From: Chthonomonadales bacterium
GTDB taxonomy: Bacteria; Armatimonadota; Chthonomonadetes; Chthonomonadales; CAJBBX01
NCBI GenBank assembly: GCA_046715155.1
Contig: JBKJZI010000236.1
Coordinates: 1-54,332, forward strand
Length of the DNA stretch: 54,332 nt
Direction of reading: 5' to 3'
Part shown: positions 1,218 through 50,350 of the stretch, piece after piece
Layout of the letters: every line of letters starts with the position of its first letter
How positions within the stretch are numbered: the stretch's first letter is position 1
Position numbers and translations under genes: made by a program
Notes under the pieces: generated by a model
What the model was told of the DNA's origin: nothing
The model's input: the letters and a program-made list of their open reading frames with translations, nothing else
Database searches by the model: none

Positions 1218-2711
1218 GTGTCCGAGCGACGACCACACGAAAACTGTTATTGGGTAGACGAAGCTTTGCTCGCTGGTGAATACCCGGGGGACAAGGATGC
1301 CGGTAAGGCGCGCGCAAAGATCGGAAGCATCCTGGACGATGGCGTCACTTGTTTTTTTGATCTCACCATGGAATGCGAGCTGGTACCGTACGAACAATCC
1401 CTTAATTCTGAATCCGCCAAGCGGGGTACAGTCACAGAATACCAGAGATTCCCGGTTCCCGATCTCGGGATTCCGACGGCTGACCAGATTACTGCGATCC
1501 TTGATGCAATTCAAGCGGCGGCAAGGATAGGGCGAAAATCATATATCCACTGTTGGGGTGGCGCCGGAAGGACCGGCGTCGTCGTTGGATGTCTCTTCGT
1601 GCGGCGCGGGATGTCTGGGACCGAAGCGCTCGAAACGGTATCACGACTCTGGTCCAGTGTAGAAAAAGCGTATCGAAGTCCTGCATCGCCTCAAACCGGC
1701 GGTCAAAGAAAGGCGGTTCTGGAATGGAGCGAGCCTTCTCGCCGGATGAATGCCGGAAAGGTTAATATTAATCGGCAAACCATAAGCCGATTCCGCGGTT
1801 GTCTACTCGGTCTAGCCGTCGGTGATGCAGTGGGAACGACTCTGGAGTTCAGAAGTCCGGGAACATTTGCGCCCATCAAGGACTTGGCAGGCGGAGGACC
1901 CTTTCGTTTGTCACCGGGCGAGTGGACTGACGATACGTCGATGGCGCTTTGCCTCGCTGCAAGCTTGATTGAATGTGACGGTTTCGACCTTAAAGATCAG
2001 ATCGAGCGATATGTGCGGTGGTGGAAATCGGGTTACCTTGCATCAAACGGGCGTTGTTTTGATATCGGAAACACCGTTCGTAGAGCACTGGAATCCTATA
2101 CACAGACGGGCAATCCTGAATCTGGACCAACAGACACGATGTCGGCTGGGAATGGGAGTATTATGCGGCTGGCTCCGGTAGCAATGGCCCACTTCTATGA
2201 TCCTGGTGAAGTCGCGAGTAAAAGTGAGCTTAGCTCGCGAACTACGCATGGGACTAAGACAGCCCTGGATGCGTGTCGTTTCTTTGGCGTCTTGCTGGCT
2301 GGTGCCTTGAACGGAGCGACCAAGGATGACCTCCTAGCGCCAGACTTCGAACGCGCTTCCAAGGTCTTCACCGAATCGCCGCTTCATCCGGAGATCATGA
2401 GGGTAGTGTCCGGCTCGTACAAGACGAAGAATCCGCCGGAGATTCGCGGAACCGGTTATGTCGTGCAGTCGCTGGAAGCGGCACTCTGGGCATTTTACAA
2501 TAGTACGTCTTTCGAGGAAGGCTGTTTGATGGCTGTGAATCTCGGTGATGACGCCGATACCACTGGCGCGGTGTACGGGCAGTTCGCCGGCGCCTATTAC
2601 GGGGAAGACAGTATTCCAATTAAGTGGCGAGAGAAGCTGGCCCATAGAATCGCCATCGAGCTTTTGGCCGAGCAAGTGTACGCGCTTGCTCGGCGAAACG
2701 GCGCTGGTTAG
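1218..2711 (+). CDS. fusion protein: N-terminal Cys-based (PTP/dual-specificity-like) phosphatase domain plus C-terminal ADP-ribosylglycohydrolase (ARH/DraG family) domain
   Basis: GTG start 6 nt after the acs stop. The N-domain has HCWGGAGRTG, an HCX5R(T) phosphatase P-loop. From about aa 190, FRGCLLGLAVGDAVGTTLEF, GEWTDDTSMALC, GNGSIMRLAPV and DADTTGAVYGQFAGAYYG are ARH-family blocks. Confidence 0.85.
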   Translation: MSERRPHENCYWVDEALLAGEYPGDKDAGKARAKIGSILDDGVTCFFDLTMECELVPYEQSLNSESAKRGTVTEYQRFPVPDLGIPTADQITAILDAIQAAARIGRKSYIHCWGGAGRTGVVVGCLFVRRGMSGTEALETVSRLWSSVEKAYRSPASPQTGGQRKAVLEWSEPSRRMNAGKVNINRQTISRFRGCLLGLAVGDAVGTTLEFRSPGTFAPIKDLAGGGPFRLSPGEWTDDTSMALCLAASLIECDGFDLKDQIERYVRWWKSGYLASNGRCFDIGNTVRRALESYTQTGNPESGPTDTMSAGNGSIMRLAPVAMAHFYDPGEVASKSELSSRTTHGTKTALDACRFFGVLLAGALNGATKDDLLAPDFERASKVFTESPLHPEIMRVVSGSYKTKNPPEIRGTGYVVQSLEAALWAFYNSTSFEEGCLMAVNLGDDADTTGAVYGQFAGAYYGEDSIPIKWREKLAHRIAIELLAEQVYALARRNGAG

Positions 2712-13185: not shown

Positions 13186-14115
13186 CTAGGGACGACGCCG
13201 ATGGTCGCGCCTGGGGTCGTACGCCGCTCCGGGAGCTCCTGGCGCCTCCGCCAACCACGCGGGCTTGAACTTTGGCCCGTACGGGCCGGAGGTAAATTCG
13301 AAGTTGCCCATCTCACCCCAATGGCCGGAATAGTTGAGCCAGCTCGGATTCGTCCGGTCGACCCACTCCAGCCTTTCCCAGGTGCGCCAAACGGGCCCGG
13401 ATGCGTCCATATGGTCAAACGATTTGCGTCCGGCCGTGGGAAAACTCGCGTGGCTGTGATGCGCGGAGTAAACTACCGGACGTCCTTCCGAGTTCATGCA
13501 ACTCGCCGCTGGATGCCACTCGCCGCCGTTGTGCGCCGCGTAGTAGACGTGGCTCGCCTTGCCGTTAATCACTCGCACCGTTATATGCTCGAAATCCCCT
13601 TCGTGACCGACGATCTCCACGCCAGGGATGTGCGACTTGCCGAGAACGGGATCGCCGTTGTAGGCATAGAAGAACCAGTACTGGATGTCCAGGTAGCCCC
13701 GACCCTCGATGGTATGCGCGTAGCAAACGGCCGAGGCGAGGTCTCCCTGGCGCGTCGTCTTTTCATCCCGGTCATTAGGAATTTGTAGGAAGAAGTCGCT
13801 TTTGCTGCGACCGCCGGAGCTCTGGCCGCGGCGAGATTGGGCGGCGATGGCCGCCGGCGTCACCTGCCCCTTATTCAGGACCTGGTCGTCGCTCCGCAGG
13901 CGACGGTGCAGGCGCATGTGTACGCGCTGCATGTACCATAGAGTTGACGCTGGACGGTAGGAATCACGCGAGTGGAGCCGCACTTCGGGGGCAAGCTGGC
14001 GCACCAACGTCTCCGTATCGGTCGGCCTGGGAATTGCGCCCTTCTGAACTTCCGCCTGACCGGCGGCATAACCCGAAATCAAACAGATGCCGATGGAAAC
14101 AATCGCCCACTTCAC
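13186..14115 (-). CDS. exported Vps62/DUF946-like protein
   Basis: Signal peptide MKWAIVSIGICLISGYAAGQA. YLDIQYWFFYAYNG and GHEGDFEHITVRV match the Vps62 (PF06101-like) core motif H-x-G-D-[WF]-E-H. Confidence 0.8.
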   Translation of the reverse strand: MKWAIVSIGICLISGYAAGQAEVQKGAIPRPTDTETLVRQLAPEVRLHSRDSYRPASTLWYMQRVHMRLHRRLRSDDQVLNKGQVTPAAIAAQSRRGQSSGGRSKSDFFLQIPNDRDEKTTRQGDLASAVCYAHTIEGRGYLDIQYWFFYAYNGDPVLGKSHIPGVEIVGHEGDFEHITVRVINGKASHVYYAAHNGGEWHPAASCMNSEGRPVVYSAHHSHASFPTAGRKSFDHMDASGPVWRTWERLEWVDRTNPSWLNYSGHWGEMGNFEFTSGPYGPKFKPAWLAEAPGAPGAAYDPRRDHRRRP

Positions 14116-14191: not shown

Positions 14192-15271
14192 TTATGGATT
14201 CGGGCTCAGAGAGCGTTGGCGGCGCGGGGCCTTTTTGATCTCGCAGCCGAACGCTTTGGTCTCCGGCGTGGCGACGGGTTTGCCCGCGAGAACGGAATCG
14301 AGGGCGTCCTTCAGGTAGCGCTGTTTGACGGCGGCGGGATCCTGATTGTCATCGATAGAGCCGCTATAGACCGCGGTTCCTTTTGCATCCACCACCCAGA
14401 CGGTCGGAGTGAACTCAACGGCGAATCGGTTCGCGAGGCTGTTCCGCATATCGCGCGCCACCGGGAAGCCGATCTTACGTTCTTCCGCGCGCGCTTTGAT
14501 CGCCACGGTCCGTTCGCCCTGGTTGGGATAGAGCCCGAGGAACGCCACGTCTTTGTAGGCCGGATCTGTGGCGAGCTCAGATAGGCGCTCCTCATACGCC
14601 TTCGTTACAGGACAATCCACGCTGAGGAAGAGGACCGCTGAAACCTTTTTGCCGGCCGGAAGCAGGGTGGCGGTCTTTGCGTTGACATCCTTCACCGAAA
14701 AGCTTGGGACCGGCTGGCCGACCTTGCCCTTCCAGTTGGAAAGCAGCAGGGCGAGGTTTTCGCCGTGGCGGGTGGTGAAAGCGCCGCCGGTGCGGTCGAA
14801 CTGGGCGTTGACATTGCGGTCGATGTGGGTGATTGTGCCCGTAGTTCCGATCACGAAGGTAACACGCGCGGCGCGGCCACTGGGCTGCAGAACGCCATAG
14901 GCTTCGCTCATCTTCTTGTCGGAATCGGCAAGCAGTGGGAAGTTCAGCATCTCCTTCTCGTGGAACGCTTTCTGGGCTTCCACGGTGTCGGTGCTGATTC
15001 CGAATACGACGGCGTTACGCTCCTGAATGCGGCCCATCACGTCCCGGAGGGCCTTAACTTCGCACGTTCATCCAGGCGTCCCGGCGCTGGGATAGAAGGC
15101 AAGCACAACGCGCTTGCCGCGGTAATCACTGAGCTTCTGGAATTTGCCGGAATGGTCGGCCATTTCAAATTCCGGCGCTTTCTGGCCGACTTCCAACTCC
15201 GCGCCCTTGGCGCCGGGCGCCAGGGCCAGCGTGCAGATTATGGCCGGAACGACCCCTCGCAATGAGATCAT
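14192..15271 (-). CDS. candidate selenoprotein: exported Bcp-type peroxiredoxin (TGA at the peroxidatic position, 15068-15070) fused to a TlpA/redoxin-like thioredoxin-fold domain
   Basis: ORFs 15068..15343 and 14192..15040 share one frame. Read-through gives VVLAFYPSAGTPG-[TGA]-TCEVKALRDVMGRIQERNAVVFGISTD, the Prx active-site block. ATG 15271 follows AAGGAG and starts a signal peptide, MISLRGVVPAIICTLALAPGAKG. The second domain has SVDCPVTKAY and the C-terminal FGCEIKK. Confidence 0.7.
15028..15064 (-). promoter_or_regulatory. candidate SECIS-like stem-loop downstream of the peroxiredoxin TGA
   Basis: RNA UGCG-AAGUUAAG-GCCC-UCCGGGACGUGAU-GGGC-CGCA forms two 4-bp helices separated by an 8-nt bulge. 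It starts 4 nt after the UGA. Drawn by eye only and not scored against a bSECIS model. Confidence 0.2.
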
Positions 15272-15425
15272 AATTGCTCCTTGAGATTGCCTGAATCCGA
15301 CGACGAACCATGGAGCCGGACCATAATCCAGGCGGTAATCCATCTGACTAAGTGTAATCCACAGTCGCGCGCGGGGTCAATGCGTCTGTGGCATAATCGT
15401 TTTAGCGTTCCAGAAGGAGTGGATT

Positions 15426-16250
15426 GTGAGCGAAGCGCGGGCCGTGGTAATCGCTAATGTCGCGCCGATGAGGGGCGAACCAGGCAGCCGATCGGAACAG
15501 ACGAGCCAGGCGATCTTTGGCGAGACGGTGCGGGTCCATGAGGAGTCGGGCGAGTACACGCGGATTCAGACTCCGGATTCCTACTCCGGCTGGATACGGT
15601 CATCTCAGCTCTGGGTGCTGGAGACTGATGAGCGGTACCCAAACCCGACGCGCGCCGCCATGGTCTCATCGCTCATTCTTCCGGTCTTTCGCGAGCCATC
15701 CGGACGGTCGGAGCGGATTACGCTGCTTACTCTGGGCACTGCGGTCGAGCTGGCGGACGGGGATGCGGGATCCGCGTTCTTCCCCATCCGGTTTCCGGGT
15801 GGGGAGATCGGATACCTGGAGAGCTCAGCGCTCATCGTGCCGCACTACCCACCGCCGGAAGAGCTGGGTCCGAATCTGGCCGTCGTTGCGCGCGGCCTGA
15901 TTGGGGCGCCGTATCTGTGGGGTGGGCGTACGCCCTTCGGGATCGACTGCTCCGGATTCACGCAGCGGGTTTACTGGCTGTGCGGTCACGTGATTCCGCG
16001 TGACGCCTATCAGCAGGCCGCGTTCGAACAGTTTGAATCCGTGGAAAAGGACGAATTGCGCACGGGAGATCTAGTCTATTTTGCCGCAAAGGAAGACCCG
16101 CGCAACAGAGGCGTTACTCATGTGGGCCTTATGGTGGACTCCGCGCGGTTCATTCACGCGTCGGGACGATACAATGGAGTCTCGATCAGCCCGCTGGAAG
16201 ACGTCCATTACGGGCCGGTCTATTGGGGGGCGCGGAGGATGAAGAAATGA
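15426..16250 (+). CDS. NlpC/P60 (C40) cell-wall peptidase with N-terminal SH3b-like domains
   Basis: GAPYLWGGRTPFGIDCSGFTQRVYW (catalytic Cys) and THVGLMV (His). GTG start. Confidence 0.85.
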   Translation: MSEARAVVIANVAPMRGEPGSRSEQTSQAIFGETVRVHEESGEYTRIQTPDSYSGWIRSSQLWVLETDERYPNPTRAAMVSSLILPVFREPSGRSERITLLTLGTAVELADGDAGSAFFPIRFPGGEIGYLESSALIVPHYPPPEELGPNLAVVARGLIGAPYLWGGRTPFGIDCSGFTQRVYWLCGHVIPRDAYQQAAFEQFESVEKDELRTGDLVYFAAKEDPRNRGVTHVGLMVDSARFIHASGRYNGVSISPLEDVHYGPVYWGARRMKK

Positions 16251-16335: not shown

Positions 16336-17172
16336 CTAGGGGTGGAGCCCGCCCGGAATCCCCTTCGGAAACGTTTGCTGGATGGCTTCCTTGATCCGCT
16401 CCGTGCGCTTATCCGGATTCGGGTGGGTGCTGAAGAATTCGGGTTGGCGGCCTCCGCCTCCGGCGGCTTTTTTGAGGACCTGCATGACGGTTAGCATGGA
16501 ACGAGGGTCGTAGCCTGCCTGGGCCATGTAGCGGACTCCAAGTTTGTCGGATTCCAGCTCATCCTCGCGGCCGAAGCGCATATTGACGAGCTGGCCGATG
16601 GCCGCGGCGACCGCGGCGCTGTTGCGGCTGCCGGCGTTGTTCGGATCATAAGTGGCAATTACTGCGGCACCGGTCAAGCCGGCGGTCAACTCCTGCTTGG
16701 CGAGGTGCTCGGCTCCGTGGCGGCCCACGACGTGGCCGATCTCATGGCCCAATACCCCGGCGAGCTGGCCGCGCGAATCCAGTTTATGGAGCAGCGCCTC
16801 GGTGATGAAGATCTGGCCGCCGGGAAGGGCGAAAGCGTTTACGGTTTTCTCGTCGTCCAGCAGGTGGAACTCGAATCGATAGGGACTCTTTTTCGCGTCC
16901 GATTCCGCCACGATTTCCTGCCCCACTTCATGGACTAATTGCCGACCTTTCGGGTCGTTGGATTCCCCCCCGAACTGCTGCGCGAGCTGCGGCGCTGCTT
17001 GAAGTCCGAGGGCAATTTCCTGATCGGGTTTAATGCTGACCCGCTGCTTCTCGCCGGTGACGGCGTTGATCTGTTCCGAGCCGTAGTATCTCCAGAGCGC
17101 GAAGCCGGCGATCAAAAGCGCAATGATCAGCTTCGCGCCGCCGAATCCACCGCCCGATCGTTGGTAGTTCAT
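16336..17172 (-). CDS. M48-family zinc metalloprotease, membrane anchored
   Basis: HEIGHVVGRH (HEXXH), followed by a downstream ELESDKLG-type third ligand region. ATG 17172 follows GGGGGAAGGA. N-terminal TM helix AKLIIALLIAGFALW. Confidence 0.88.
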   Translation of the reverse strand: MNYQRSGGGFGGAKLIIALLIAGFALWRYYGSEQINAVTGEKQRVSIKPDQEIALGLQAAPQLAQQFGGESNDPKGRQLVHEVGQEIVAESDAKKSPYRFEFHLLDDEKTVNAFALPGGQIFITEALLHKLDSRGQLAGVLGHEIGHVVGRHGAEHLAKQELTAGLTGAAVIATYDPNNAGSRNSAAVAAAIGQLVNMRFGREDELESDKLGVRYMAQAGYDPRSMLTVMQVLKKAAGGGGRQPEFFSTHPNPDKRTERIKEAIQQTFPKGIPGGLHP

Positions 17173-17383
17173 TGTCCTTCCCCCTTCCATCAAGCCGCCA
17201 AGGCAGCAGAAGCAAAGACGCAATCCCCTCATTCAAGGGTTCCAACCCGCGTTCCTCTCCGCAGAGGTTGGCTGAGAGGACAGCGCAAGTACGAAAAACG
17301 AAAACAGAATCAGCTACGTACTCAAAGAAATGAAACGAAACCTTGTGAAATTGGAGACGTAATGGGTGCATACGGGAGGAAGT

Positions 17384-19241: not shown

Positions 19242-19333
19242 GCGTTGGGCGTTGGGCATTCGGAACCACACTTCACGCGGCTTCTCGCGGATTCCGGAGT
19301 CTGAGTATCGTGGAACAGCCGAAGGAGCCTGGG

Positions 19334-19858
19334 ATGACGAACGAAGCCAGCCTGCATGTCGGTGACGACGAGTATCAAGCACGGACCGCGAGTTTCAAGC
19401 GAGCAAGCGACTGGGTCGGCCTGGCCGCATTCTGCCGTAATGTCGAGAAGCGAATTGCTCGTTCGATACGCCGGGGCACCACATCCGAGGATGACCAAAG
19501 ACTCCGCATTGGTGCCCTACTGGACTTGCAGATTGCGTACAGTGTCCTAAGACGACCAGACGAGGAGGTGGCGGCGGGGCAGGAAGCGATTCGCGCCGCC
19601 AAGCGCATTCCCTTGGACCCAATCAACATGCACTTCATGTATTTGATGTTGGCGCGGGCTTACAAGCATGCAGGTGCGACGGAGAAGTCGCGTGAAGCGA
19701 TCGGCCGTGCAATTACCAGCGTGCTCACAAAGTCTCAAACAGAGTTTGTTTTATGTGGCCTTGAAGAACTGGAGGCTGCCAACTCAGGTGCCATTACCCT
19801 CCGGGAACTCGCGGAGATCCTTAAGAAGGCGAGAAGAGTGGCGAGCAGGTCAGAATAG
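19334..19858 (+). CDS. hypothetical helical protein
   Basis: ATG 19334 lies 6 nt after AAGGAG. 174 aa. No recognisable motif. Confidence 0.55.
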   Translation: MTNEASLHVGDDEYQARTASFKRASDWVGLAAFCRNVEKRIARSIRRGTTSEDDQRLRIGALLDLQIAYSVLRRPDEEVAAGQEAIRAAKRIPLDPINMHFMYLMLARAYKHAGATEKSREAIGRAITSVLTKSQTEFVLCGLEELEAANSGAITLRELAEILKKARRVASRSE

Positions 19859-19959
19859 TTGCGCCCAGAGGTTTGGACATTGATGGCGGAGAGGCTTGTG
19901 AGATGTGTGGGTCCGTGGCGGCATAATGATTATGGAGACTTTTGAAACGGGGTGATTCG

Positions 19960-20220
19960 GATGGCGACGACCAGAGACATCTTGCTTGAGGAGACGGAAG
20001 ATGCGCCGGAAGAGTTCTCCGCAGCGTTATAGATTACATGCGGTTCCTGAAGCGCCGAATCCATGACGAACGGAACGAGCCCATGCTGCTGGCGGAATCC
20101 GCGCTGGCGAAGGATTGGCTCAGATAGGAAGAAGACGAGGCGTGGAAAGACCTGTAAAAGGGGATATCGTCGTCAATTCTTTTGTCAATAGTCGGTCGGG
20201 CATTTTGAATGTGGCGTCTG
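19960..20220 (+). pseudogene. decayed type II TA remnant: DUF2281-like antitoxin (frameshift plus in-frame TAG) followed by the first ~20 codons of a MazF/PemK-like toxin
   Basis: Frame a reads MATTRDILLEETEDAPEEFSAAL*. Frame b continues DYMRFLKRRIHDERNEPMLLAESALAKDWLR*EEDEAWKDL*, then KGDIVVNSFVNSRSGILNVASA*. The pieces match the antitoxin and toxin N-terminal consensus only when frames and stops are bridged. Confidence 0.5.
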
Positions 20221-20251
20221 CGTAGAATCAGAAGTCCGTTCGAAGGGGAGC

Positions 20252-21184
20252 CTGACGACCGATTGCGAATCGCAATGGCCGAGCCTACCGCTAGAGGAAT
20301 GGAGCGATACCTGCGCAACGCTGCATCTGTGGACGCAAATCGTTGGAAAGATCCGGATGGAGCAGAGTCCGTGGGTGGATCATTCGTGGGGTGTTACGCT
20401 GTATGTGACTTCACGGGGCCTTACTTCGTCGCCGATTCCGCACGGTACGCGCATCTTTGAGATCGAGTTTGACTTTATCGAGCATGAGTTGGCGATCCGA
20501 TCGAGCGATGGCGGCACGGGACAGATCCCGCTGCGGCCGCAGTCGGTTGCGGCCTTCTATCGAGAATTGATGGGCGAGATGGACCGGCTCGACCTTCACG
20601 TCAAGGTCGACCCGATCGCCAACGAGATTCAGGATACTGTCCGGCTTGACCAGGATGAGTCCCATGGGTCGTATGATCCCGAGTATGCGAATCGGTTCTG
20701 GCGGATTCTGGTGCAGGCGGATCGGGTGTTCAAAGAGTTTCGTTCGAGATTTATCGGCAAGTGCAGTCTGGTGCATTACTTCTGGGGCGGGCCGGATCTG
20801 GCGGTGACGCGGTTCTCCGGGCGGACCGCCCCGCCGCATCCCGGCGGAGTCCCCCACTTGCCGGACCGCGTTGCGCGCGAGGCCTACTCGCATGAGGTGA
20901 GCAGCGCCGGGTTCTGGCCAGGAGGCGGTTCGATTCCGTATCCGGTCTTCTACTCCTACGGTTATCCCGAGCCGGCGGGATTCCGGGATGCTACCCTCAA
21001 GCCGGATACAGCGTTTTACAGCCAGGACTTGCGGGAGTTCGTCCTGCCGTACGAAGCGGTCCGCCAGGCGGGGAATCCGGATGAGACGCTGTTGGATTTC
21101 CTGCAGACGACGTATGAAGCAGCAGCCATTCACGGAAACTGGGACCGGGATGCGCTGGAGAGACCGGCTGGATGGCACGTTTAG
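20252..21184 (+). CDS. DUF5996-family protein
   Basis: The conserved N-terminal block QWPSLPLEEWSDTCATLHLWTQIVGKIRM lies upstream of the first ATG (20357). The frame is open back to 20192 with no ATG, GTG or TTG; CTG 20252 is the only near-cognate codon. The 5' end is therefore uncertain or damaged. Confidence 0.7.
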   Translation: MTTDCESQWPSLPLEEWSDTCATLHLWTQIVGKIRMEQSPWVDHSWGVTLYVTSRGLTSSPIPHGTRIFEIEFDFIEHELAIRSSDGGTGQIPLRPQSVAAFYRELMGEMDRLDLHVKVDPIANEIQDTVRLDQDESHGSYDPEYANRFWRILVQADRVFKEFRSRFIGKCSLVHYFWGGPDLAVTRFSGRTAPPHPGGVPHLPDRVAREAYSHEVSSAGFWPGGGSIPYPVFYSYGYPEPAGFRDATLKPDTAFYSQDLREFVLPYEAVRQAGNPDETLLDFLQTTYEAAAIHGNWDRDALERPAGWHV

Positions 21185-21836: not shown

Positions 21837-23141
21837 ATGAGGTCTGCCGTATTTGCGCTATCGACAGTGGTCGGTTTTTTCGCTTTTGGCCAGTCGTCGC
21901 GAGCCGAACAAGAGGCTCCGGCAACTCCGGAATCCTTGACCGCGAAAATCGAGACGCTGCGGCCTAAACAGCTCGTCTGGAGAGAGATCGGCTGGAACCG
22001 GTGCCTGCTCGATGGGCTGAAACAATCGCGTGAGCAGAAAAAGCCGGTGCTGCTCTGGGCGTTCATCAACGCGGATCCGCAAGGGGAGCGGTGCTGAGTG
22101 TTCGCAGGAGCTGCCCGTGAGGCGGTCTTCTCCAACCCGACGGTGATCCGTCGGCTGAACGCCGAATTCATTCCGGTTTCGGTCAGCGCCGCACGGATGC
22201 ATACACCGCCGCAAGATATTGAAGGGCGTTTGCTCCAAGCGGCCGGTCGCGTCGCGCCCGCTCCACAGGGAATCGCCGTGTTGAACTCCGACGGGCAGCC
22301 GCTCGCCTGGACCCTGATGTTCGACAGCGACTCCGCGGTTCTCGACTTTCTGGACTACGCGAAGCGCCGATTCCGGGAGTATGGCGACAGGTCGCGGCCA
22401 TTCGAGAGCGAGCGATTCCAGCGCTTTCCTTCCATGCGCGAGCCGGATGCCGCGTACACGGGCGGGTTACGCGCTCCGGCAAGTCATCCTCAAGGGGAAG
22501 CGTGTCCTGGCCGTCCCCAGCATCCGAAGGGCACGCTCCGGGTGCAGGTTATCGGGCGCGCTCTGGACGACCGCGGGCAGCCCGGCGCGGATACGCTCCA
22601 CCAATCGCAGTACGTTCAAGACCAGTTCGAGATTCCGGTGCCGATGCAGCGGCTGATAGCCGCGGCGCTTTCCGGCGCGGAATTCGGCCCAATCCGCGTT
22701 CCGGATGGTTTCGCCCGGATGCTCGTCTTCCACGCTTTCCTGGGGCAGATCGACGTCCGTCCGCTGGAGAATCCGAATGGGGGCCATTCAAAGATAGCTG
22801 TGTACGAGTTCTGGGCCCAGCGAACGAGTGGGAAGGACGGAAAGTCAGTCCTGCGGCTAGATGGAACCTCTCACCTTGTTACCGATGCTGCACCGCAAGG
22901 CGAAATGCAGCACTTCCGACACTCAGTGAAGCTCACGTGGGAAGGGTTCCTGGAACTGGATGGAAACCGGATTACTCGCCTGATACTGTCCGGCGAAGGC
23001 ACGGAGCGATTGACATGGAACGCGCCGCAGCCACCCACAGGAACTCTATCAGAGGTCGCTTTTCTTCCCGCCGGCCGCTCTATCAACTTCGATGGAAAAG
23101 TGCGCTACGGATTGATAGGCAAGCCGACTGGTAGCGATTGA
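21837..23141 (+). CDS. candidate selenoprotein, exported; thioredoxin-like N-domain with in-frame TGA (22095-22097) plus ~340-aa domain of unknown function; paralog of 49130..50350
   Basis: ORFs 21837..22097 and 22098..23141 are contiguous in one frame. The first has a signal peptide and ends ...KKPVLLWAFINADPQGERC-[TGA]. The second has no RBS, spacer or signal peptide and continues VFAGAAREAVFSNPTVIRRLNAEFIPV. Confidence 0.65.
22111..22125 (+). promoter_or_regulatory. candidate SECIS-like apical hairpin
   Basis: CUGCC-CGUGA-GGCGG: a 5-bp stem including one G-U, with a loop 19-23 nt after the UGA. A stronger 7-bp hairpin, CCGACGG-UGAU-CCGUCGG, lies at 22137-22154. Neither was scored against a model. 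Confidence 0.2.
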
Positions 23142-25894: not shown

Positions 25895-26719
25895 ATGAAA
25901 CGAAGTGGTTTTACTCTGATCGAGCTGCTCGTGGTTATCGCGATTATTGCCATTCTCGCCGCAATCTTGTTCCCAGTTTTCGCTCAGGCAAGGGAGCAGG
26001 CGCGCTCCACCTCGTGCCTGTCAAACGTGAAGCAGATAGGCCTCAGCGTCAAAATGTACGCAACGGACTATGACGAGGCGTTTCCGATGGGAACTTACAA
26101 CGGTCCCCGCAACTGGGAAGTCAACATGGACGTGCCGCAGCAGAACCTGGGGTGGAATGACTGCTGGGCCGATCCCGTGTCTGGCGGTCCGATGAGATGG
26201 CTGGGATTTAACCCTGGAGACGGCGGCCCCAACTATGTTGGTTGTGGCTACGGCGGAGAGTTTTACCGGACGCTCATGACAATACAGCTCGGCCCCTACC
26301 AAAAGAACAAACAGATCTGGTACTGCCCCTCCGACAAGTACCGAACGCCGAGCCCGCAGAACATCACTACCGGAATGCAGTCCTACCAGTGGTTCCCGAA
26401 CTGGATCTACAACGGTTGCTGCGGAATCGACGTCCGCTATCCGGAAGGGTTCATTAACCTGATCTCGGACAACCCGTCGGAGAAATCGGACCGGGTGGCG
26501 GAGCGAATGCTCTTCACGGAGCGCGGTACGTTTGGCTGGGACGGGGCGGACGCCCAGAACGGTGCCTGCCAACCGTGGACAGATCGTCGCGGAATCTTCA
26601 ATCACCCGCGCGGCTACAATGCCATCTACTTCGACGGTCACGCCAAGCTGGTCCCGTACGGCCGGAAGTGGCGCACGATTCCGGCATCCGGGTGGGGCAT
26701 CGGCTGCCGGCCGCAATAG
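25895..26719 (+). CDS. prepilin-type N-terminal cleavage/methylation domain protein, DUF1559 family (type IV pilin-like)
   Basis: [29 protein letters not shown] (class III signal, G-F-T-L-I-E) and the C-terminal YFDGHAKLV motif. Confidence 0.92.
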
Positions 26720-32504: not shown

Positions 32505-35500
32505 TCAGGCGACCAACTGTTCCAGGGGCTCCGTGTCGTCACAGTGAAGGGCGAGTGCGACGGCGCGGTCCAACGACAATGCTGCGCCCGCGGCCCACGC
32601 TGCCGCGAAGTCCTCCTCCCGCAGCTCCGCCTTCATCGCGCGGATGTCCAACTCACGGAGGCTCCGCGCACGCTCACCCAATGGAATCCCGAGCTTGGCT
32701 TGGGCGGATTCCGCCGCCGCCATGAGCTTCGCCGCGGTGTACGGCTGGGACTCGCAGCGGGCCACGTTTCCCAGACTCGCGATGGTCTCCGCCATACCGG
32801 CTTTGTCGCCCAGGTCGCGATTCATGTGAAGGCTTTGCTCGAAATGCTCCCTGGCGCGGCGAAGGTCCCCCTGGCGCAATCTCACTTCGCCGATATTGTG
32901 ATGGAGTAAGGCTTCGCCCCAACGGTTTCCCAGCTCTCTGAATAGGTCGAGGCTGTGCTGGTAACAGACGTACGCAGGGCGGAACTTGAGCTGCTCGAAT
33001 GCGGCGCTGCCTTCGTTGTTGAGGACTATCGCCGCCTGCGACCGGTCGCCGAGCTGCTCGAATAGCTGGCGGCTCCGGCGATAGTAGTCGATGGCAGTAA
33101 GGTGGTCATCCTGGTCCTGAGAGATACGGCCGAGGTTGTTCAGGCAGGCTGCTTCCCCCCATCGATCTCCCATCTTCTTACGAAGGTCCAGGCAGAGCTC
33201 GTAGTTCTCCCGCGCCGTTCGGCTATCGCCGCGATCACCCGCCAATACGCCGAGATTATTGTAAGCCTCCGCCTTAGCAGATGCGTCACGGAATCGCTTC
33301 GCGAGGTTCAGACTGCTTGTCAAGGCGGATTCCGCGCACTTCTGATCTCCCAAATGATAGGCCAGCACGCCCAGTCCGTTGAGCGCTCTGGCTCGCGTGA
33401 TTGTTGGCTCCTGGGAACCGGCAAGGGCGACTTCGAGCCACTGACGGCCTTCACCGACGTAACCGCGCACGAACCAGAAACGCCAAAGTGCGGCCGCCAG
33501 TCGCAGACCGATCTCGTCGTTTGTAAACCGTGACAGCGCTGCTCGGAAGTTGTCGTGTTCCATCTCGATGCGGGTGTACGCCGAAGTCGAATCCGCGCTT
33601 CGGAATGACGACTCAGCCGATTCCGCTATCTGAAGAAAATGCTCGGCATGAAGACGATAAAGCGACCTGCGATCGGCTTCATCCAGCATTTCGTCCGTAT
33701 ACTCCCGAAGTGTTTCGAGAATGCGGAAGCGCATATCGTCTTCAGCGAGAAGCTCGGTAACAATGAGCGAGCGCTGCACCAGCGCGTCAACGAGCTCGAA
33801 GGCGTCCGGTATCCCGCACACCTGCTGCGCCTGCTCCAGGGTCCATGTCCCGCGAAAGACCGAGAGTTGTGAATAGAACCGAGCCATGTCCGCCGGCAAG
33901 AGGTCGTAACTCCAGGCAATCGCTGATCTTATGGATTGGTGTCGGGGTTCTACGTTCTTCTTGCGACTCACCAGGAAACTCAGCCGCCGCCCCAACTGGC
34001 TGAGCATTTGCGTTGGGCTGATCGATTGCGCCCTGGCTGCGGCCAGCTCGATAGCCAGAGGGACTCCTTCGAGCTTTTCACATATCGCGGCGACGACCGG
34101 CGCATTGCGCGACGTGATTTGAAAGTCCGGGCTTACGGCCTGCGCGCGGTCGACGAACATCTGTACGCACGCAAACTCCATCAGCCGGTCCGGCGTGCCG
34201 GGTCGAGACGGTATGGGAAGGGGCCTGAGGGGAATGACGACTTCGCCTTGCAGATCGAGCGGTTGGCGAGAAGTGATAAGGCAGGTAAGCGTTGGCGCCT
34301 TCTGGAGTAAACCCCAGACCCACTCGGCCGCCTCTGGCTCGAGGTGCTCGAAGTTGTCGAACACGACAAGCGCTGGAGCGCCCGCCAGCGCGTTGACGGT
34401 CATCAGCTCTAAGTCTCCGACGGGTGAACGCGGAACGCCTAGCGCATTTGCGAGCGCGTCAGGAAGGGAGCGCGCGTCATGGAGATCCGCCAGCGGGACG
34501 AAATAGACCCGCTGGGCATAATCGGCGGAGATACGGTGGGAGAGCTCCAGGGCCAGCCTGGTTTTCCCCGCGCCGCCAGGGCCCGCAAGCGTCACCAGCC
34601 GCTCGGCTCCTTGCTGGAGGGCTTCCAGAAGGCGCTGCAGTTCAACCTCACGGCCAAAGAATCGTGTGAGAACCAGGGGCAGGCGTACGGGTTCGGGTGA
34701 TTTCGATGCCTGCTCCGGTTTCGGCAAATCCTCAGCCGGCGTGCTCGCGACAACGCTGCCGGGTGGTCGAGTCGCGCGGTAAGCTGGATCCCGCCGCACG
34801 AGGATTCCGGTTTGCAGCCGAATCAGCTTCGTTAGCTCGACTATCTCCGGACTGGGGCGTAGGCCGAGATCGCGACGGAGAATGCGGGACAGTCGGCGAT
34901 ACTGCTCCTGCGCGTCATGCGGCCGGCCGAGCTTCAGGTATAGCCGCATGAGATCATAGTGCGCTTCCTCGGAGTCATGCGCAGCGGAGATGGCCCGCAG
35001 TCCAAAGTCGAGGGCATCCTGGTAGGAGCCTCGTTCCTCGAGGTGCAATACGATCTGCCTGAGGGCCTGAAGATGCATCACCAGAAGTCGCTCGCGCGAG
35101 ACGAGCACCCAGTCGTCGTAGCAGCCCGGAAGGAATCCGCCATGATACATCTCGACTGCCCGAAGATGAAGTTGGAGTTTTTCGTCGGGATCGTCCGTCG
35201 ACTTAGCGCTCTCGATGAGGCTCAGAAACTCAGCGACATCGGTCGTGATGCTAGAAGGGTTAAGGCGGGCGAAACGCCGAGGAGCAATGAGGAAAGTCGA
35301 TAGGGGAACTCCCGGGGGTTCTAGCTGCTTGCGAAGCGATGTCAGCGCCTGGCTGAGGCTCTGGCTGCCGCGATCCCATTCGGAATCGGGCCAGAATAAC
35401 TCCATAAGCTCATCGCGGGAGTGGTCTTCCCTCAGGTTGTAGGCGAGATAGGCGAGGAGGAGACCGGTCTTGCGCGTCTGGAAGCGAACGATCTCGCGCC

Positions 35501-35555
35501 CATCGCTAATCGCCCTTAAGCCTCCAAAAAACTCGATTCTCCACGGCGTAATCAT
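32505..35555 (-). CDS. BTAD/SARP-type transcriptional regulator with NB-ARC-like ATPase and TPR domains
   Basis: The N-terminal winged-helix plus BTAD region has LLAYLAYNL and YHGGFLPG. Walker A is LAGPGGAGKTRLALE. The C-terminal ~400 aa are TPR repeats. The start is set at ATG 35555 (MITPWRIEFFGGLRAI); the ORF is open to 35780. Confidence 0.85.
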   Translation of the reverse strand: MITPWRIEFFGGLRAISDGREIVRFQTRKTGLLLAYLAYNLREDHSRDELMELFWPDSEWDRGSQSLSQALTSLRKQLEPPGVPLSTFLIAPRRFARLNPSSITTDVAEFLSLIESAKSTDDPDEKLQLHLRAVEMYHGGFLPGCYDDWVLVSRERLLVMHLQALRQIVLHLEERGSYQDALDFGLRAISAAHDSEEAHYDLMRLYLKLGRPHDAQEQYRRLSRILRRDLGLRPSPEIVELTKLIRLQTGILVRRDPAYRATRPPGSVVASTPAEDLPKPEQASKSPEPVRLPLVLTRFFGREVELQRLLEALQQGAERLVTLAGPGGAGKTRLALELSHRISADYAQRVYFVPLADLHDARSLPDALANALGVPRSPVGDLELMTVNALAGAPALVVFDNFEHLEPEAAEWVWGLLQKAPTLTCLITSRQPLDLQGEVVIPLRPLPIPSRPGTPDRLMEFACVQMFVDRAQAVSPDFQITSRNAPVVAAICEKLEGVPLAIELAAARAQSISPTQMLSQLGRRLSFLVSRKKNVEPRHQSIRSAIAWSYDLLPADMARFYSQLSVFRGTWTLEQAQQVCGIPDAFELVDALVQRSLIVTELLAEDDMRFRILETLREYTDEMLDEADRRSLYRLHAEHFLQIAESAESSFRSADSTSAYTRIEMEHDNFRAALSRFTNDEIGLRLAAALWRFWFVRGYVGEGRQWLEVALAGSQEPTITRARALNGLGVLAYHLGDQKCAESALTSSLNLAKRFRDASAKAEAYNNLGVLAGDRGDSRTARENYELCLDLRKKMGDRWGEAACLNNLGRISQDQDDHLTAIDYYRRSRQLFEQLGDRSQAAIVLNNEGSAAFEQLKFRPAYVCYQHSLDLFRELGNRWGEALLHHNIGEVRLRQGDLRRAREHFEQSLHMNRDLGDKAGMAETIASLGNVARCESQPYTAAKLMAAAESAQAKLGIPLGERARSLRELDIRAMKAELREEDFAAAWAAGAALSLDRAVALALHCDDTEPLEQLVA

Positions 35556-35840
35556 CGTGCCGGAGTCCCTCAACAGAAGAAACGCGCGGATCTCAGGTCC
35601 ATCCAGACCCACGGCATGAGGACGCACGCTCATCGATAACATTCTCGATACGTCACGTTCACGGTAGGCTGGATCAATTCCTCTGAATTCGCAAGATTCC
35701 GTCACGCCTCGGTCTGTCCCGGCTTCTTGTGAAGCGCCCCCAATGAAGTGTGGCGAACTGAATGATCGAGTAGACGGCATCTCCGCTTCGGCGTGCCGGC
35801 CCCTGAGCTACCTCGAGGGTAACCGGCGGATTCCGGTAGG

Positions 35841-36597: not shown

Positions 36598-37728
36598 TTA
36601 ACCGATATCCCGGCCCTGCCCGCCGTCACCGATTGCCGCCGGTTCTTTGAGAAGCTCCCGCGCGCGCTGACGGAGCCGATCCAAGGGCTGATATTCAATG
36701 CCTGTTTCGGGGCGGGCCATCCATGCAGTCCAGCCATTGCAGCCCGCAGCGCCCAGAAGATGGGCGCCAACGAAATGGATACTCCCGCGTGCGCCGTTAG
36801 AAGATATAGTGCCGTCAGCGTGGATCAATCCGAATAGTGGTCCGCTGCCAAGACGCAGCCGGTCCCCTTCCCTTACGAGACCCAATTCCAACAGGACGGA
36901 GAAAGCGACACGCTCCGGCTGAGGCGGAGGCGGCGCTAGGGATTCATCCGGCGCGGGCGTCACGGATTCGATCCTCATGCGGCCAGCGTCAACATAAGCG
37001 TCCTCGCGTTCGATTCCGATAAACCGGCGGCCCAGCCGCTTTGCGACCGACGCCGTGGTGCCCGCTCCTAAGAAAGGGTCCAGAACGGTATCGCCAGGAT
37101 TTGTGCAGCTTCGGATGATGCGATGCAAAAGGGCTTCCGGCTTCTGGGTGGTGTGGACTTTACCGTTCGCGTCGCGGAGTCGCTCTCTCCCCTGGCAGAT
37201 CGGCAGATACCAATCGCTGCGCGCCTGCAGATCTTCGTTGCCGGCCTTGAGCGACCCGTAATGAAATGTATAGCGCTTCTGTTCCGCCGACTTCTTCGCC
37301 CAAATCAGAGTTTCGTGCGCGTTGCAGAATCGGACCCCGCGGAACTGCGGCATGGGATTGGATTTGACCCAGCAGATGTCGTTGAGAATCCAATATCCGA
37401 GGTCCTGAAGGATGGAGCCGACTCGGAAGATGTTATGGTAGGTGCCGATAACCCAAATAGTCCCCGTGTCTTTCAACACGCGGCGGCATGCCAGGAGCCA
37501 CTCTCGGGTGAACCTATCGTAGGCTTCAAAGCTCATGAACTGGTCCCAACCGTCATTCACCGCATCAACGCGCGACATATCGGGCCGGTAGAGCTCTTTG
37601 CGAAGCTGAAGGTTATACGGAGGGTCCGCAAAGACGAGGTCCGCGCACTGCTCAGGGAGCGACTGCATAACCTGAATGCAGTCGCCCTGGATGATGTCAC
37701 CGCCGTCCATTTCGATCTTCACGTTCAC
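36598..37728 (-). CDS. ccrM: CcrM-type beta-class N6-adenine DNA methyltransferase (predicted GANTC specificity); no adjacent endonuclease
   Basis: LVFADPPYNLQL (motif IV DPPY), VLDPFLGAGTTASVAKRLGRRFIGIERE (motif I). There are long collinear blocks I recall from Caulobacter CcrM: DAVNDGWDQF, YDRFTREWL, RRVLKDTGTIWVIGTYHNIFRVG, NPMPQFRGVRFCNAHETLIWA, KRYTFHY, TQKPEALL. The CcrM-specific C-terminal domain is also present (GSIHFVGA...CNGWTAW). Confidence 0.9.
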   Translation of the reverse strand: MNVKIEMDGGDIIQGDCIQVMQSLPEQCADLVFADPPYNLQLRKELYRPDMSRVDAVNDGWDQFMSFEAYDRFTREWLLACRRVLKDTGTIWVIGTYHNIFRVGSILQDLGYWILNDICWVKSNPMPQFRGVRFCNAHETLIWAKKSAEQKRYTFHYGSLKAGNEDLQARSDWYLPICQGRERLRDANGKVHTTQKPEALLHRIIRSCTNPGDTVLDPFLGAGTTASVAKRLGRRFIGIEREDAYVDAGRMRIESVTPAPDESLAPPPPQPERVAFSVLLELGLVREGDRLRLGSGPLFGLIHADGTISSNGARGSIHFVGAHLLGAAGCNGWTAWMARPETGIEYQPLDRLRQRARELLKEPAAIGDGGQGRDIG

Positions 37729-48771: not shown

Positions 48772-49133
48772 TAAGAGGCGTGGTGGGCGGCCTTCAAGCA
48801 TTAGTGAGCCTGGAAGTCATTGATGCGTACGGTCGACCGCTTTCGTTGGAGGGAATCGTCGATACAGGGTTCGCCGGATATCTAACACTGCCTTCGGACC
48901 TTATTCAAAAGCTCCAGTTGCGTTGGACTCACCGCATGTACTCTCGTTTGGCGGGGAATATACCGATGCTGTCCGAGGTTTACGAAGCTACGGTCCACTT
49001 CCGCGATGTCAAGGAAAGAATCGAAGTTTTGGAGATGGAAGACGACATCCTGCTCGGCATGTCACTCTTGATCGGAACCGAAATTCGAATCCAGGTGGAG
49101 GAAGGTGGACTTGTGGAAATTGAGCCTTTATGA
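48768..49133 (+). CDS. clan AA (retropepsin-like) aspartic protease
   Basis: IVDTGFAGYLTLPSDL (D-T-G active-site triplet). 121 aa. ATGA overlaps at both ends. Confidence 0.78.
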   Translation: MIRGVVGGLQALVSLEVIDAYGRPLSLEGIVDTGFAGYLTLPSDLIQKLQLRWTHRMYSRLAGNIPMLSEVYEATVHFRDVKERIEVLEMEDDILLGMSLLIGTEIRIQVEEGGLVEIEPL

Positions 49134-50350
49134 ACGTCAGGATGTTCGGAATCATCGCCAGCTTACTCGCTTCTGCAATCCTGTGGGCCAGCGGGGACAC
49201 GATATCGGAACTGGAGGGGAAGATCGCCGCGGTATTGCCGACCGCCGAGGAAGATGCTTTTCTGCAGATTCCGTGGCGGATGAATGTGCTTCGAGCCCGG
49301 GCGGAATCTGCTCGGACGGGGAAGCCATTGTTCATCTGGTCTATGAACGGGCATCCTTTCGGCCACACTTGAGCGAACGGTCTGCGGAACCGGCGGTTGA
49401 CGCTGAATCATCCTGAAATCCGGCGAAAGCTCACGTCGGACTTCATTCCCACGGTAGCGCCCAGCACCGATCCCTCTTTCAGCGACAGCGAGGCTGGAAA
49501 ATGGTTCTTCCGCATGGCCGATACGAACAAGGAGTCGGGCGGGCATTACCAGGGCTTTTACATCGTTAACGCCGACGGAATTGGTCCCACACGCCATTTT
49601 GATCCGATCGGCCATTACCCCACCGGTCCGCTGCTCAAGTTCATGGACGACGCTTACAGAGTCGTCCGGGCGAAACCAGTATCCAAGACCGAGATTTCGG
49701 AAAGCCAGCTCAGCCTGCCGCCGATGGCCCGCCCGGACCCGTCGACTTCCGTGCTTCGGATCGTGAACCGCATTGTTGGCGCACCTGCCGACCCCCACCT
49801 TCTCAACAATGCGCCGGACCGAGACTTCATCTGGGTTTTGCGCGAAGAGGTCAAGGAAATCGTACAACTCGCGCGCCAGGGAGGTGAATTCGCTCTTCCC
49901 CGACCGATGGTCGGCCGTCTCGTCCGCTATCACCTCGTGGACAACCTGGGCGGCCGAACGCAGTTCTTCATGGGTGCGCGGGAAGTCAAGCGGGCGGATT
50001 TCCGGGCACGCGTCCTGCGCGTAGGACCACGATTCCTAGAGCTAAGTCTGAACGGAACTTACGCGTCCACTCAGGAAAAGAACGCTTTCGGAATCGAAGG
50101 CGAGATCCAAGGTGAATTGAGAATTGACACTCAAACGCTGCGGATCACGCGCCTTCGCGCATTCGCTACATCACAGGCGTGGGGCGGTCCGGTCAATGGG
50201 GCTGAGACACCTCCCCCGGGAAAGTTCAAGATAATCCACGCCCTGACCGAGGCAGACGACGTGATCGCCCGCAACGTCCCTCCCGCCTACGGCTATTCCA
50301 CAACCTACCTCGACGCCGGCTACCGGAGTCTTCCGAAGTACACCCCCTAA
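49130..50350 (+). CDS. candidate selenoprotein, exported; paralog of 21837..23141 with in-frame TGA at 49370-49372
   Basis: ORFs 49130..49372 and 49397..50350 share one frame, with only sense codons between them. Read-through gives GKPLFIWSMNGHPFGHT-[TGA]-ANGLRNRRLTLNHPEIRRKLTSDFIPTV. The TGA-to-FIP spacing (24 residues) is identical to the paralog. Signal peptide MNVRMFGIIASLLASAILWASG. Confidence 0.65.
49374..49395 (+). promoter_or_regulatory. candidate SECIS-like hairpin
   Basis: CG-AA-CGGU-CUGCGGA-ACCG-G-CG: 6 bp with a small internal loop, starting 2 nt after the UGA. Drawn by eye only. Confidence 0.2.

Follow-up and report, generated by a model that had tools for sequence, protein, structure and literature searches.

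A conserved in-frame UGA in the gene for a probable exported two-domain selenoprotein peroxiredoxin of soil Armatimonadota

Main finding

We analysed a 54,332-nucleotide (nt) stretch of contig JBKJZI010000236.1 (assembly GCA_046715155.1), here called the window, and identified on its minus strand a peroxiredoxin (Prx) gene with a single in-frame TGA at the position of the peroxidatic cysteine. The locus as a whole is best explained as one gene that very probably encodes an exported two-domain selenoprotein peroxidase, in which selenocysteine (Sec) is the residue inserted at the UGA. Comparison with homologues establishes a single open reading frame (ORF), a conserved UGA aligned with cysteine, the active-site residues of a peroxiredoxin, a conserved hairpin and a two-domain fold.

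Gene model and reading frame

The gene and its signals are as follows.

14192..15271, minus strand: proposed recoded gene of 359 codons including Sec68, from ATG at 15271 to TAA at 14194-14192
15068..15070, minus strand: in-frame TGA, proposed Sec codon (U68) at the peroxidatic position, placed by alignment with Cys homologues
15277..15282, minus strand: Shine-Dalgarno-like AAGGAG, ending 5 nt before the start codon, read from the sequence

The minus-strand ORFs 15343..15068 and 15040..14192 lie in one frame, as had been predicted from the sequence, and only the TGA and nine sense codons (15067-15041) separate them. Read-through from the ATG at 15271 meets this single internal stop (...KRVVLAFYPSAGTPG[TGA]TCEVKALRDVMGRIQERNAVVFGISTD...), which matches the original prediction, and the context of residue 68 is VVLAFYPSAGTPG-X-TCEVK, where X is the TGA-encoded residue. 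A second in-frame TAA (14191-14189) directly follows the gene's own. The likely start is the ATG at 15271 rather than 15343, because the upstream piece of a close relative is called at 67 amino acids (aa). The ribosome binding site claimed for the upstream piece is present as the AAGGAG ahead of this ATG. When the TGA is taken as Cys, residues 28-149 match Pfam AhpC-TSA (E = 8e-52, 174.8 bits, with a cut-off of 26), and residues 208-306 match a further, thioredoxin-like domain. We conclude with high confidence that minus-strand positions 15271-14192 are one UGA-recoded gene.

Recoding would be specific to particular sites. The three positions given earlier as examples of TGA acting as a normal stop are indeed TGA codons, and TGA ends 6 of the 26 listed window ORFs, most of which have Pfam matches (e.g., the NlpC/P60 gene at 16248-16250). 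Genome-wide reassignment of TGA (genetic codes 4 and 25) was rejected, as TGA terminates Pfam-matched genes (NlpC/P60, STAND-type ATPase) and the column in question aligns with Cys. The guanine plus cytosine (G+C) content of the window is 60%. Stop usage in the 26 ORFs is TAG 11, TAA 9 and TGA 6, a small sample at this G+C content. In a bacterium rich in G+C it seems unusual that TAG is the commonest stop and TGA the rarest, which may be connected with UGA recoding.

Conservation of the TGA across homologues

With the read-through sequence as query against 5.8 billion proteins, we identified 68 two-domain homologue clusters. Eleven are full length (345-391 aa) and align end to end with the query. 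All 11 have Cys at the TGA column (..TPGCTCE.., ..TPGCTLE..), which bears out the claim that the TGA stands at the peroxidatic-Cys column. About 56 clusters (47-92% identity) are called at ~261-312 aa and cover the query only downstream of the TGA. UGA-shortened forms outnumber Cys forms by about 5 to 1 within the fusion family, and public annotations, including NCBI-sourced entries, show only shortened proteins for the UGA forms.

The DNA was read for 17 relatives from different assemblies: three GTDB metagenome-assembled genomes (MAGs; two of them named Chthonomonadaceae), six metagenome contigs, and eight contigs found via exact protein look-up. The species-representative genome collection held three two-domain relatives (L001-L003) and a metagenome scan gave six more; the other loci were for the most part common single-domain BCPs, which we set aside. 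The 17 relatives are Armatimonadota/Chthonomonadaceae-like, mostly from soil, with 37-92% protein identity. TGA occupies the same column in 18/18 loci (the window plus 17 relatives), and none has TAA or TAG there. This is far beyond chance. The DNA of two Cys-form loci, L172 (10001-11146) and L173 (10001-11056), has TGC at the column.

The frame upstream of the TGA is conserved as ..[DA][LV]E[VI]GxxAPxFxLxDxxG....L....GK.[VL][VI]LAFYP...T.G following a hydrophobic N-terminus. Synonymous differences amount to ~0.5 per comparable pair upstream of the TGA as well as downstream, and amino acids are conserved on both sides. Thus, both pieces are under coding selection and translated in one frame. 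Synonymous-site variation in codons +2 to +13 is just mildly below that of the rest, and was not used as strong evidence.

A different reading of the locus is that the TGA is a true stop within a split or decaying gene, which would leave a 67-residue exported fragment and an independently initiated protein of 282 residues. Automated annotation gives two ORFs in every relative examined (in the eight looked-up loci, the shortened protein is preceded, at a distance of 30 nt, by a called AhpC-TSA fragment of 59-74 aa), and a GTG or ATG is found nine codons after the TGA. Gene callers therefore do cut the orthologues at the same point, an outcome resembling one that, according to the original prediction, would count against it. 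We judge these calls to be an annotation artefact, because the supposed spacer is a conserved active-site helix. Its nine codons (T-C-E-V-x-A-L-R-D), nominally intergenic, are among the most conserved of the protein as amino acids. Each piece is just part of one thioredoxin fold, with the catalytic Thr and Arg on different pieces. The downstream piece has no translation signals of its own, as had been noted: no Shine-Dalgarno motif precedes its start, and the start Met is replaced by Leu in four loci (L002, L085, L086, L161). Furthermore, the stop is always TGA over 37-92% identity, the upstream piece shows the synonymous-only variation typical of a translated frame, and the Cys forms are contiguous. 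A split gene is thus very improbable.

We give still less credence to a sequencing or assembly error in the contig, or to leaky read-through that is independent of a selenocysteine insertion sequence (SECIS), for example by near-cognate tRNA-Trp. One contig alone could not exclude a base error, but 17 independent assemblies share the TGA, and this rules out such an error. UGA is the leakiest bacterial stop codon, a point in favour of leaky read-through. However, a peroxiredoxin with Trp as its peroxidatic residue would be inactive, whereas the remaining active site is strongly constrained, and leaky read-through would not account for the conserved hairpin found at the canonical distance of a SECIS.

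A SECIS-like hairpin downstream of the UGA

Under the preferred reading of a recoded gene, a SECIS is expected 3' of the UGA, and we identified a hairpin there that fits the published bacterial SECIS (bSECIS) consensus.

15031..15053, minus strand: SECIS-like hairpin GGCCCUCCG-GGA-CGUGAUGGGCC, from folding, consensus and conservation

The hairpin has 9 base pairs (bp) and two 1-nt bulges, a folding energy of -11.9 kcal/mol, and starts 14 nt after the UGA. Its apical loop, GGA at 15044-15042, lies 23 nt after the UGA. The bSECIS consensus calls for an apical loop of 3-9 nt, a stem of 4-16 bp, a spacing of 16-37 nt and a minimum free energy of -7.5 kcal/mol or lower, with a G within the first two loop positions that is usually followed by G or U (PMC13188914). 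The window hairpin falls within all four constraints. As in E. coli-type SECIS elements of the fdhF paradigm (bSECISearch consensus, PMC13188914), it is an intra-ORF hairpin immediately downstream of the UGA; its apical loop is small and begins with G and then G or U, its spacing is within 16-37 nt, and a U bulges from the stem. Unlike in the fdhF type, the apical loop has just 3 nt, and there is neither sequence similarity nor an Rfam match.

Conservation of the hairpin is positional. The same three nucleotides form the loop in the minimum-energy fold of 16/18 sequences. Standard pairs fill 85% of the pair cells in the gap-free alignment of the 18 sequences, compared with 27-51% after a shift of the 3' partners by 1-3 columns. 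None of 500 shuffles reaches the covariation score, and three pairs have changed on both sides. At pair 21-37, for example, Ala GCC and Gly GGC of the window clade are replaced elsewhere by Ala GCU and Ser AGC. At position 24, which pairs with 33 or 32, Leu CUC occurs with GUG/GCG/GAG, versus Leu CUG with GCA, and this includes a purely synonymous choice for Ala (GCG/GCA). The Cys form L172 is nested among Sec forms in a neighbour-joining tree, and its hairpin differs from the Sec type by one stem-breaking G-to-A change; the pattern suggests that L172 changed from Sec to Cys recently and that its SECIS is decaying. On this comparative basis, the hairpin is a good SECIS candidate and is predicted to bind SelB.

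Signal peptide and peroxiredoxin domain

Several features were identified in the N-terminal half of the read-through protein.

15203..15271, minus strand: predicted signal peptide of the Sec-translocon type, residues 1-23, MISLRGVVPAIICTLALAPGAKG-AELEVG, with cleavage before AELEVG, by inspection
14825..15190, minus strand: BCP/PrxQ-type peroxiredoxin domain, residues 28-149, with P61-x3-T65-x2-U68 and Arg136, from Pfam AhpC-TSA and relatives in the Protein Data Bank (PDB)
15062..15064, minus strand: Cys70 (U-T-C), candidate resolving cysteine, from conservation, with the role inferred

The N-terminus has a basic residue, a hydrophobic core and a small-residue site ahead of the peroxiredoxin domain, and no twin-arginine motif was seen in this region. 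In homologues, the hydrophobic N-terminus ends in A-x-A just ahead of [DA][LV]E[VI]G. Residues 1-30 of the modelled homologue P0010 are disordered, with a predicted local distance difference test score (pLDDT) < 50. By inspection and comparison with homologues, the N-terminus looks like the signal peptide claimed for the upstream piece, and the protein would be exported to the cell envelope. A lipoprotein signal was considered and rejected, as no lipobox precedes Cys13 and Cys13 is not conserved.

The read-through active-site block is that of a Bcp/Prx, as claimed: PxxxTxxU, the motif of the Prx selenoprotein family (PMC13188914), is present in the window protein, and Arg136 is invariant in the alignment of homologues (A1). 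The closest PDB sequences to this domain are Sulfolobus Bcp1/Bcp4 (3drn, 3hjp; E = 6e-24 and 3e-22). The best NCBIfam model is the BCP equivalog PRK09437, at 116 bits against a cut-off of 140, and the nearest PDB and Foldseek relatives are Bcp1, Bcp4 and PrxQ. For the PrxU equivalog (NF040737) the score is 62 bits, with 270 as the cut-off, so the protein is not PrxU. A Cys two residues past the Sec position (U-x-C) is found in 17/18 Sec-type loci and the closest Cys forms (CTCE), with L, M or A in its place in distant forms.

C-terminal domain and overall fold

The remainder of the protein comprises a linking segment and a second thioredoxin-fold domain with two cysteines.

14717..14824, minus strand: inter-domain segment, residues about 150-185 (..NVNAQFDRTGGAFTTRHGENLALLLSNWKGK..), from homologue alignment and model
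14222..14716, minus strand: PrxL/PRX_like1-type thioredoxin-fold domain, residues about 186-350, from PDB sequence matches and Foldseek
14612..14614, minus strand: Cys220 (S-V-D-C-P), aligned with the CP cysteine of 2ywi (CNHCP) and 3u5r (SNRCP)
14243..14245, minus strand: Cys343 (..KAFGCEIKK..), aligned with the cysteines in GCSIKW (2ywi) and GCNIKW (3u5r); Cys220 is its proposed redox partner

The inter-domain segment is conserved in closer homologues and divergent in distant Cys forms; in P0010 it is modelled with high confidence as strands and a helix. The AlphaFold2 model of P0010, a Cys homologue 53% identical to the window protein, has a pLDDT of 92.6 and a predicted TM-score (pTM) of 0.87, and shows two thioredoxin-fold domains as a unit. 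In Foldseek searches with this model, the halves match BCP/PrxQ/AhpE and 2cvb/3u5r/2ywi, respectively. No PDB entry spans both domains, the best query-normalised TM-score being 0.43. The C-terminal domain matches 2ywi (E = 1.9e-13), 3u5r (5.8e-12) and 2cvb (7e-12) in sequence, and the corresponding part of the P0010 model has target-normalised TM-scores of 0.79-0.81 to 2cvb/3u5r/2ywi.

The protein had been described as an exported peroxiredoxin/TlpA-like fusion. The second thioredoxin-fold domain is indeed present; its identification as TlpA did not hold. The domain has SxxC (S-V-D-C-P) and no WCxxC, and NCBIfam TlpA scores 22.8 bits versus 230, with the best stretch on the N-terminal peroxiredoxin domain. 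ResA was likewise rejected (78 bits against an NCBIfam cut-off of 170), with its best-scoring stretch also on the N-terminal domain. Prx_like1 proteins (cd02969) have the motif LLVMFICQHCPFVK (PMC3514251), and 2ywi, 3u5r and 2cvb/2ywo carry it. By homology to 2ywi/3u5r/2cvb and this motif, the domain is assigned to the PRX_like1 (cd02969) type.

Among 69 family members, both C220 and C343 are present in 36 and neither in 31; two are discordant, one of them truncated. That they are kept or lost together implies that C220 and C343 are a functional pair, which about half of the family has dropped while the Sec/Cys active site stays.

Two further in-frame-TGA genes

The window was scanned for other genes with a single in-frame TGA, and two more were found.

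21837-23141, plus strand: second selenoprotein candidate, TGA at 22095-22097, ..KPVLLWAFINADPQGERC[TGA]VFAGAAREAVFSNP.., conserved in-frame TGA
49130-50350, plus strand: third selenoprotein candidate, paralogue of the 21837-23141 gene, TGA at 49370-49372, ..KPLFIWSMNGHPFGHT[TGA]ANGLRNRRLTLNHPEIRRKL..

The product of 21837-23141 is predicted to be exported, and has a C-U dipeptide in a weakly DUF255/thioredoxin-like N-terminus; no Pfam or NCBIfam match is above cut-off. All 120 homologues among the matches listed (39-89% identity) cover just the part downstream of the TGA, and no Cys form is among these matches. One of the homologues is named Pirellulales, and many are 550-570 aa long. Two related loci (L174, L175) share the TGA column and a conserved upstream frame, ..KPVLLWAFINxDPxxERC[TGA]VFAGA.. 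A hairpin whose loop is CGUGA starts 18 nt after the UGA.

The 49130-50350 gene has a signal-peptide-like N-terminus, and 23 nt downstream of its UGA lies a hairpin whose loop is GUUGA. The gene matches the 21837-23141 gene in BLASTP (E = 2e-7) across the TGA, with both TGAs aligned.

Decoding of the UGA

We infer that the organism recodes UGA, because both of these further genes have a conserved in-frame TGA with a hairpin with a G[G/U] loop downstream. The residue inserted in the peroxiredoxin is very probably Sec, judging from the sequence comparisons. Armatimonadota MAGs are reported to encode Sec-type hydrogenases and canonical tRNA-Sec, and selABCD were frequent in the Sec-type genomes surveyed (PMC13582414).

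Several observations weigh against a Sec-inserting, redox-coupled fusion. Genes for selA, selB, selD and tRNA-Sec are absent from the 54-kb window and from ~190 kb of related flanks. The Pfam scan of about 38 window ORFs identified no SelA, SelB or SelD, and no DsbD, CcdA or ScsB. ARAGORN found only tRNA-Ser(GCU) in the window and no tRNA-Sec in 21 related loci, and the flanks of related loci lack sel genes. Within the peroxiredoxin domain, the typical BCP resolving Cys is five residues after the peroxidatic residue; no Cys is found at this +5 position, and there is one at +2 instead. In addition, half of the family is without both C220 and C343. Thus, the fused domain is not an obligatory thiol reductant.

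Other adverse points concern the hairpin. The energy threshold of the bSECIS consensus is reached by 14/18 sequences, the other four (L081-L083, L163) being weaker, at -5.9 kcal/mol compared with -7.5. For the 69-nt stretch that follows the UGA, stability does not exceed that of dinucleotide shuffles (z = +0.81). The fraction of synonymous recodings at least as stable is 0.03-0.12 for most sequences, which is borderline, and ~0.5 for L081-L083 and L163. As the folding energy is unremarkable, we judged the hairpin by its positional conservation and covariation; in a neighbour-joining tree, the covariation probably rests on few independent events. A permissive Rfam search of 14900-15200 found no SECIS family, just chance-level matches (E > 4), and at gathering thresholds tRNA-Ser is the sole match in the whole window. 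Because the Cys-form loci L172 and L173 retain similar hairpins, part of the hairpin may reflect coding constraint or recent ancestry.

The UGA might instead be recoded via SECIS and SelB as Cys, or as a mix of Sec and Cys set by selenium supply, with a carrier tRNA of the tRNA-ReC (SelC*) type and a Cys-peroxiredoxin as product. Evidence that tRNA-ReC-like tRNAs decode SECIS-linked UGA as Cys is cited in PMC13582414, which reports such tRNAs beside canonical tRNA-Sec in 5/5 Armatimonadota genomes with UXXU hydrogenases. The family also swaps UGA and UGC readily, as in the Cys form L172 nested among Sec forms. However, a plain UGC would do for Cys, yet UGA is kept in 18/18 diverged lineages, and the Armatimonadota genomes reported carry canonical tRNA-Sec too. 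We regard decoding as Cys as improbable, though less so than a split gene, and favour insertion of Sec.

Proposed mechanism

The UGA at 15070-15068 would be recoded with the downstream hairpin acting as SECIS, such that SelB delivers Sec-tRNA(Sec) and Sec is inserted at residue 68. The signal peptide at the N-terminus would take the product to the cell envelope by way of the Sec translocon. There, Sec68 would be the peroxidatic residue within the Pro61/Thr65/Arg136 site, reducing H2O2 or organic hydroperoxides with formation of a selenenic acid. Peroxide reduction by the selenolate is proposed because the catalytic residues are conserved and the chemistry of peroxiredoxins is established.

Conservation of U-x-C suggests that Cys70 probably resolves the selenenic acid to a selenenylsulfide. 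The Cys220/Cys343 pair of the PrxL-type domain probably returns electrons to the active site, and the domain would itself be re-reduced by a membrane transporter of the DsbD/ScsB/CcdA type, by analogy with the Caulobacter PprX pathway. Electron return via C220/C343 would not be universal, because half of the family has lost both cysteines; in these members the domain may be structural, or may dock a separate reductant. The role given here to the fused domain is a reasoned hypothesis.

Going further, the protein might be a self-contained selenium-based peroxide scavenger of the envelope, with the PrxL domain as dedicated reductase or relay for the Sec-PrxQ site and the UGA possibly read as Sec or Cys (by tRNA-ReC) depending on selenium supply. 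We consider this extended picture unlikely. If it were true, the fusion would be a 'Rosetta stone' assigning PrxL its role, and there might be one gene with two chemistries.

Genomic context

Local synteny is found only in close relatives (L165-L167), and involves a divergent NlpC/P60 gene (15426-16250), an M48 peptidase (16336-17232) and a Vps62-domain protein downstream (13186-14115). Distant homologues lie in unrelated contexts, and in no locus examined does a redox partner or a sel gene lie next to the gene. A DsbA-like neighbour of the gene in L166 has no counterpart at 19250-20400 in the window.

Elsewhere, the window encodes an ADP-ribosylglycohydrolase fused to a DSP-type phosphatase domain (1218-2711, plus strand), a 1091-aa BTAD/STAND-ATPase/TPR regulator (32505-35780, minus strand), an N6/N4 DNA methylase with a RAMA domain (36598-37728, minus strand) and a 494-aa protein with several HTH_17-type motifs (51966-53450, plus strand). 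The presence of a DUF1559/N-methyl prepilin-type protein (25895-26719) is consistent with a source of Armatimonadota- or Planctomycetota-like type.

Comparison with known systems

The original prediction rightly placed the protein next to an established class: the Prx selenoprotein family (PF00578, TxxU) is well described (PMC13188914, PMC2398784), with 253 members counted in the GOS metagenomes (PMC2398784). PrxU of Eubacterium acidaminophilum is given as an experimentally verified Sec-Prx (Sohling et al. 2001, as cited in PMC13188914). Like these proteins, the window protein has Sec proposed in place of the peroxidatic Cys in PxxxTxxU, an AhpC/TSA fold, a hairpin within the ORF after the UGA, and Cys homologues. 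Unlike Sec-Prx/PrxU, it appears to belong to the BCP/PrxQ branch and has a predicted signal peptide, U-x-C and a second thioredoxin-fold domain. UGA-shortened forms exceed Cys forms in its family, the reverse of the usual ratio in the literature (PMC1794560). The only Prx fusion that we found reported is to a PP2C-like phosphatase (PMC2398784).

The two halves resemble separate proteins of Caulobacter crescentus. In this organism, PprX is an exported PrxQ-type peroxidase that receives its reducing power via TlpA and ScsB (Cho et al. 2012, PMC3322552). PrxL (peroxiredoxin-like1, cd02969) is also exported and reduced by ScsB; it has two distant redox-active cysteines and no peroxidase activity, and its function is unknown (PMC3322552). 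The N-terminal half of the window protein corresponds to the PrxQ-type peroxidase, and the C-terminal half to PrxL, again with two distant cysteines. Both Caulobacter proteins belong to the envelope and are kept reduced by a DsbD-family transporter. They are separate proteins and the peroxidatic residue is Cys, whereas here a single polypeptide would use Sec. No TlpA, ScsB, DsbD or CcdA gene was identified near the gene in the Pfam scan of window ORFs.

Proteins of known structure align with the C-terminal domain over ~165-175 residues, including the xxxCP and GCxIK cysteines: 2cvb/2ywo from Thermus thermophilus (oxidised and reduced), 2ywi from Geobacillus kaustophilus and 3u5r from Sinorhizobium meliloti (SMc02350), the last sharing the SxxC...GC arrangement. 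In contrast to the window domain, which is fused to a peroxiredoxin, 2cvb, 2ywi and 3u5r are stand-alone proteins of ~190 aa with uncharacterised function.

The finding is not new in kind, as Sec-peroxiredoxins are well established, and nothing in it overturns current understanding. It differs from the known members in the BCP/PrxQ branch, the predicted signal peptide, U-x-C, the PrxL fusion, the predominance of UGA forms and the soil Armatimonadota host. We found no description of a fused, exported Sec-Prx in the literature searched, and it may be listed in BSepDB.

Significance

The gene and at least 50 public relatives are called as two fragments or as N-terminally cut 'peroxiredoxins', so that the catalytic residue and signal peptide are missing from databases. 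The finding would add Armatimonadota/Chthonomonadaceae-like bacteria of soil to the users of selenium, as the window probably has three selenoprotein genes within 54 kb; Sec forms had been associated with low oxygen in previous genome surveys (PMC1794560). U-x-C and the joint loss of both C-terminal cysteines offer clear targets for mutation. As the fusion joins a PrxQ-type peroxidase to a PrxL-type domain, it suggests that PrxL proteins work with envelope peroxiredoxins.

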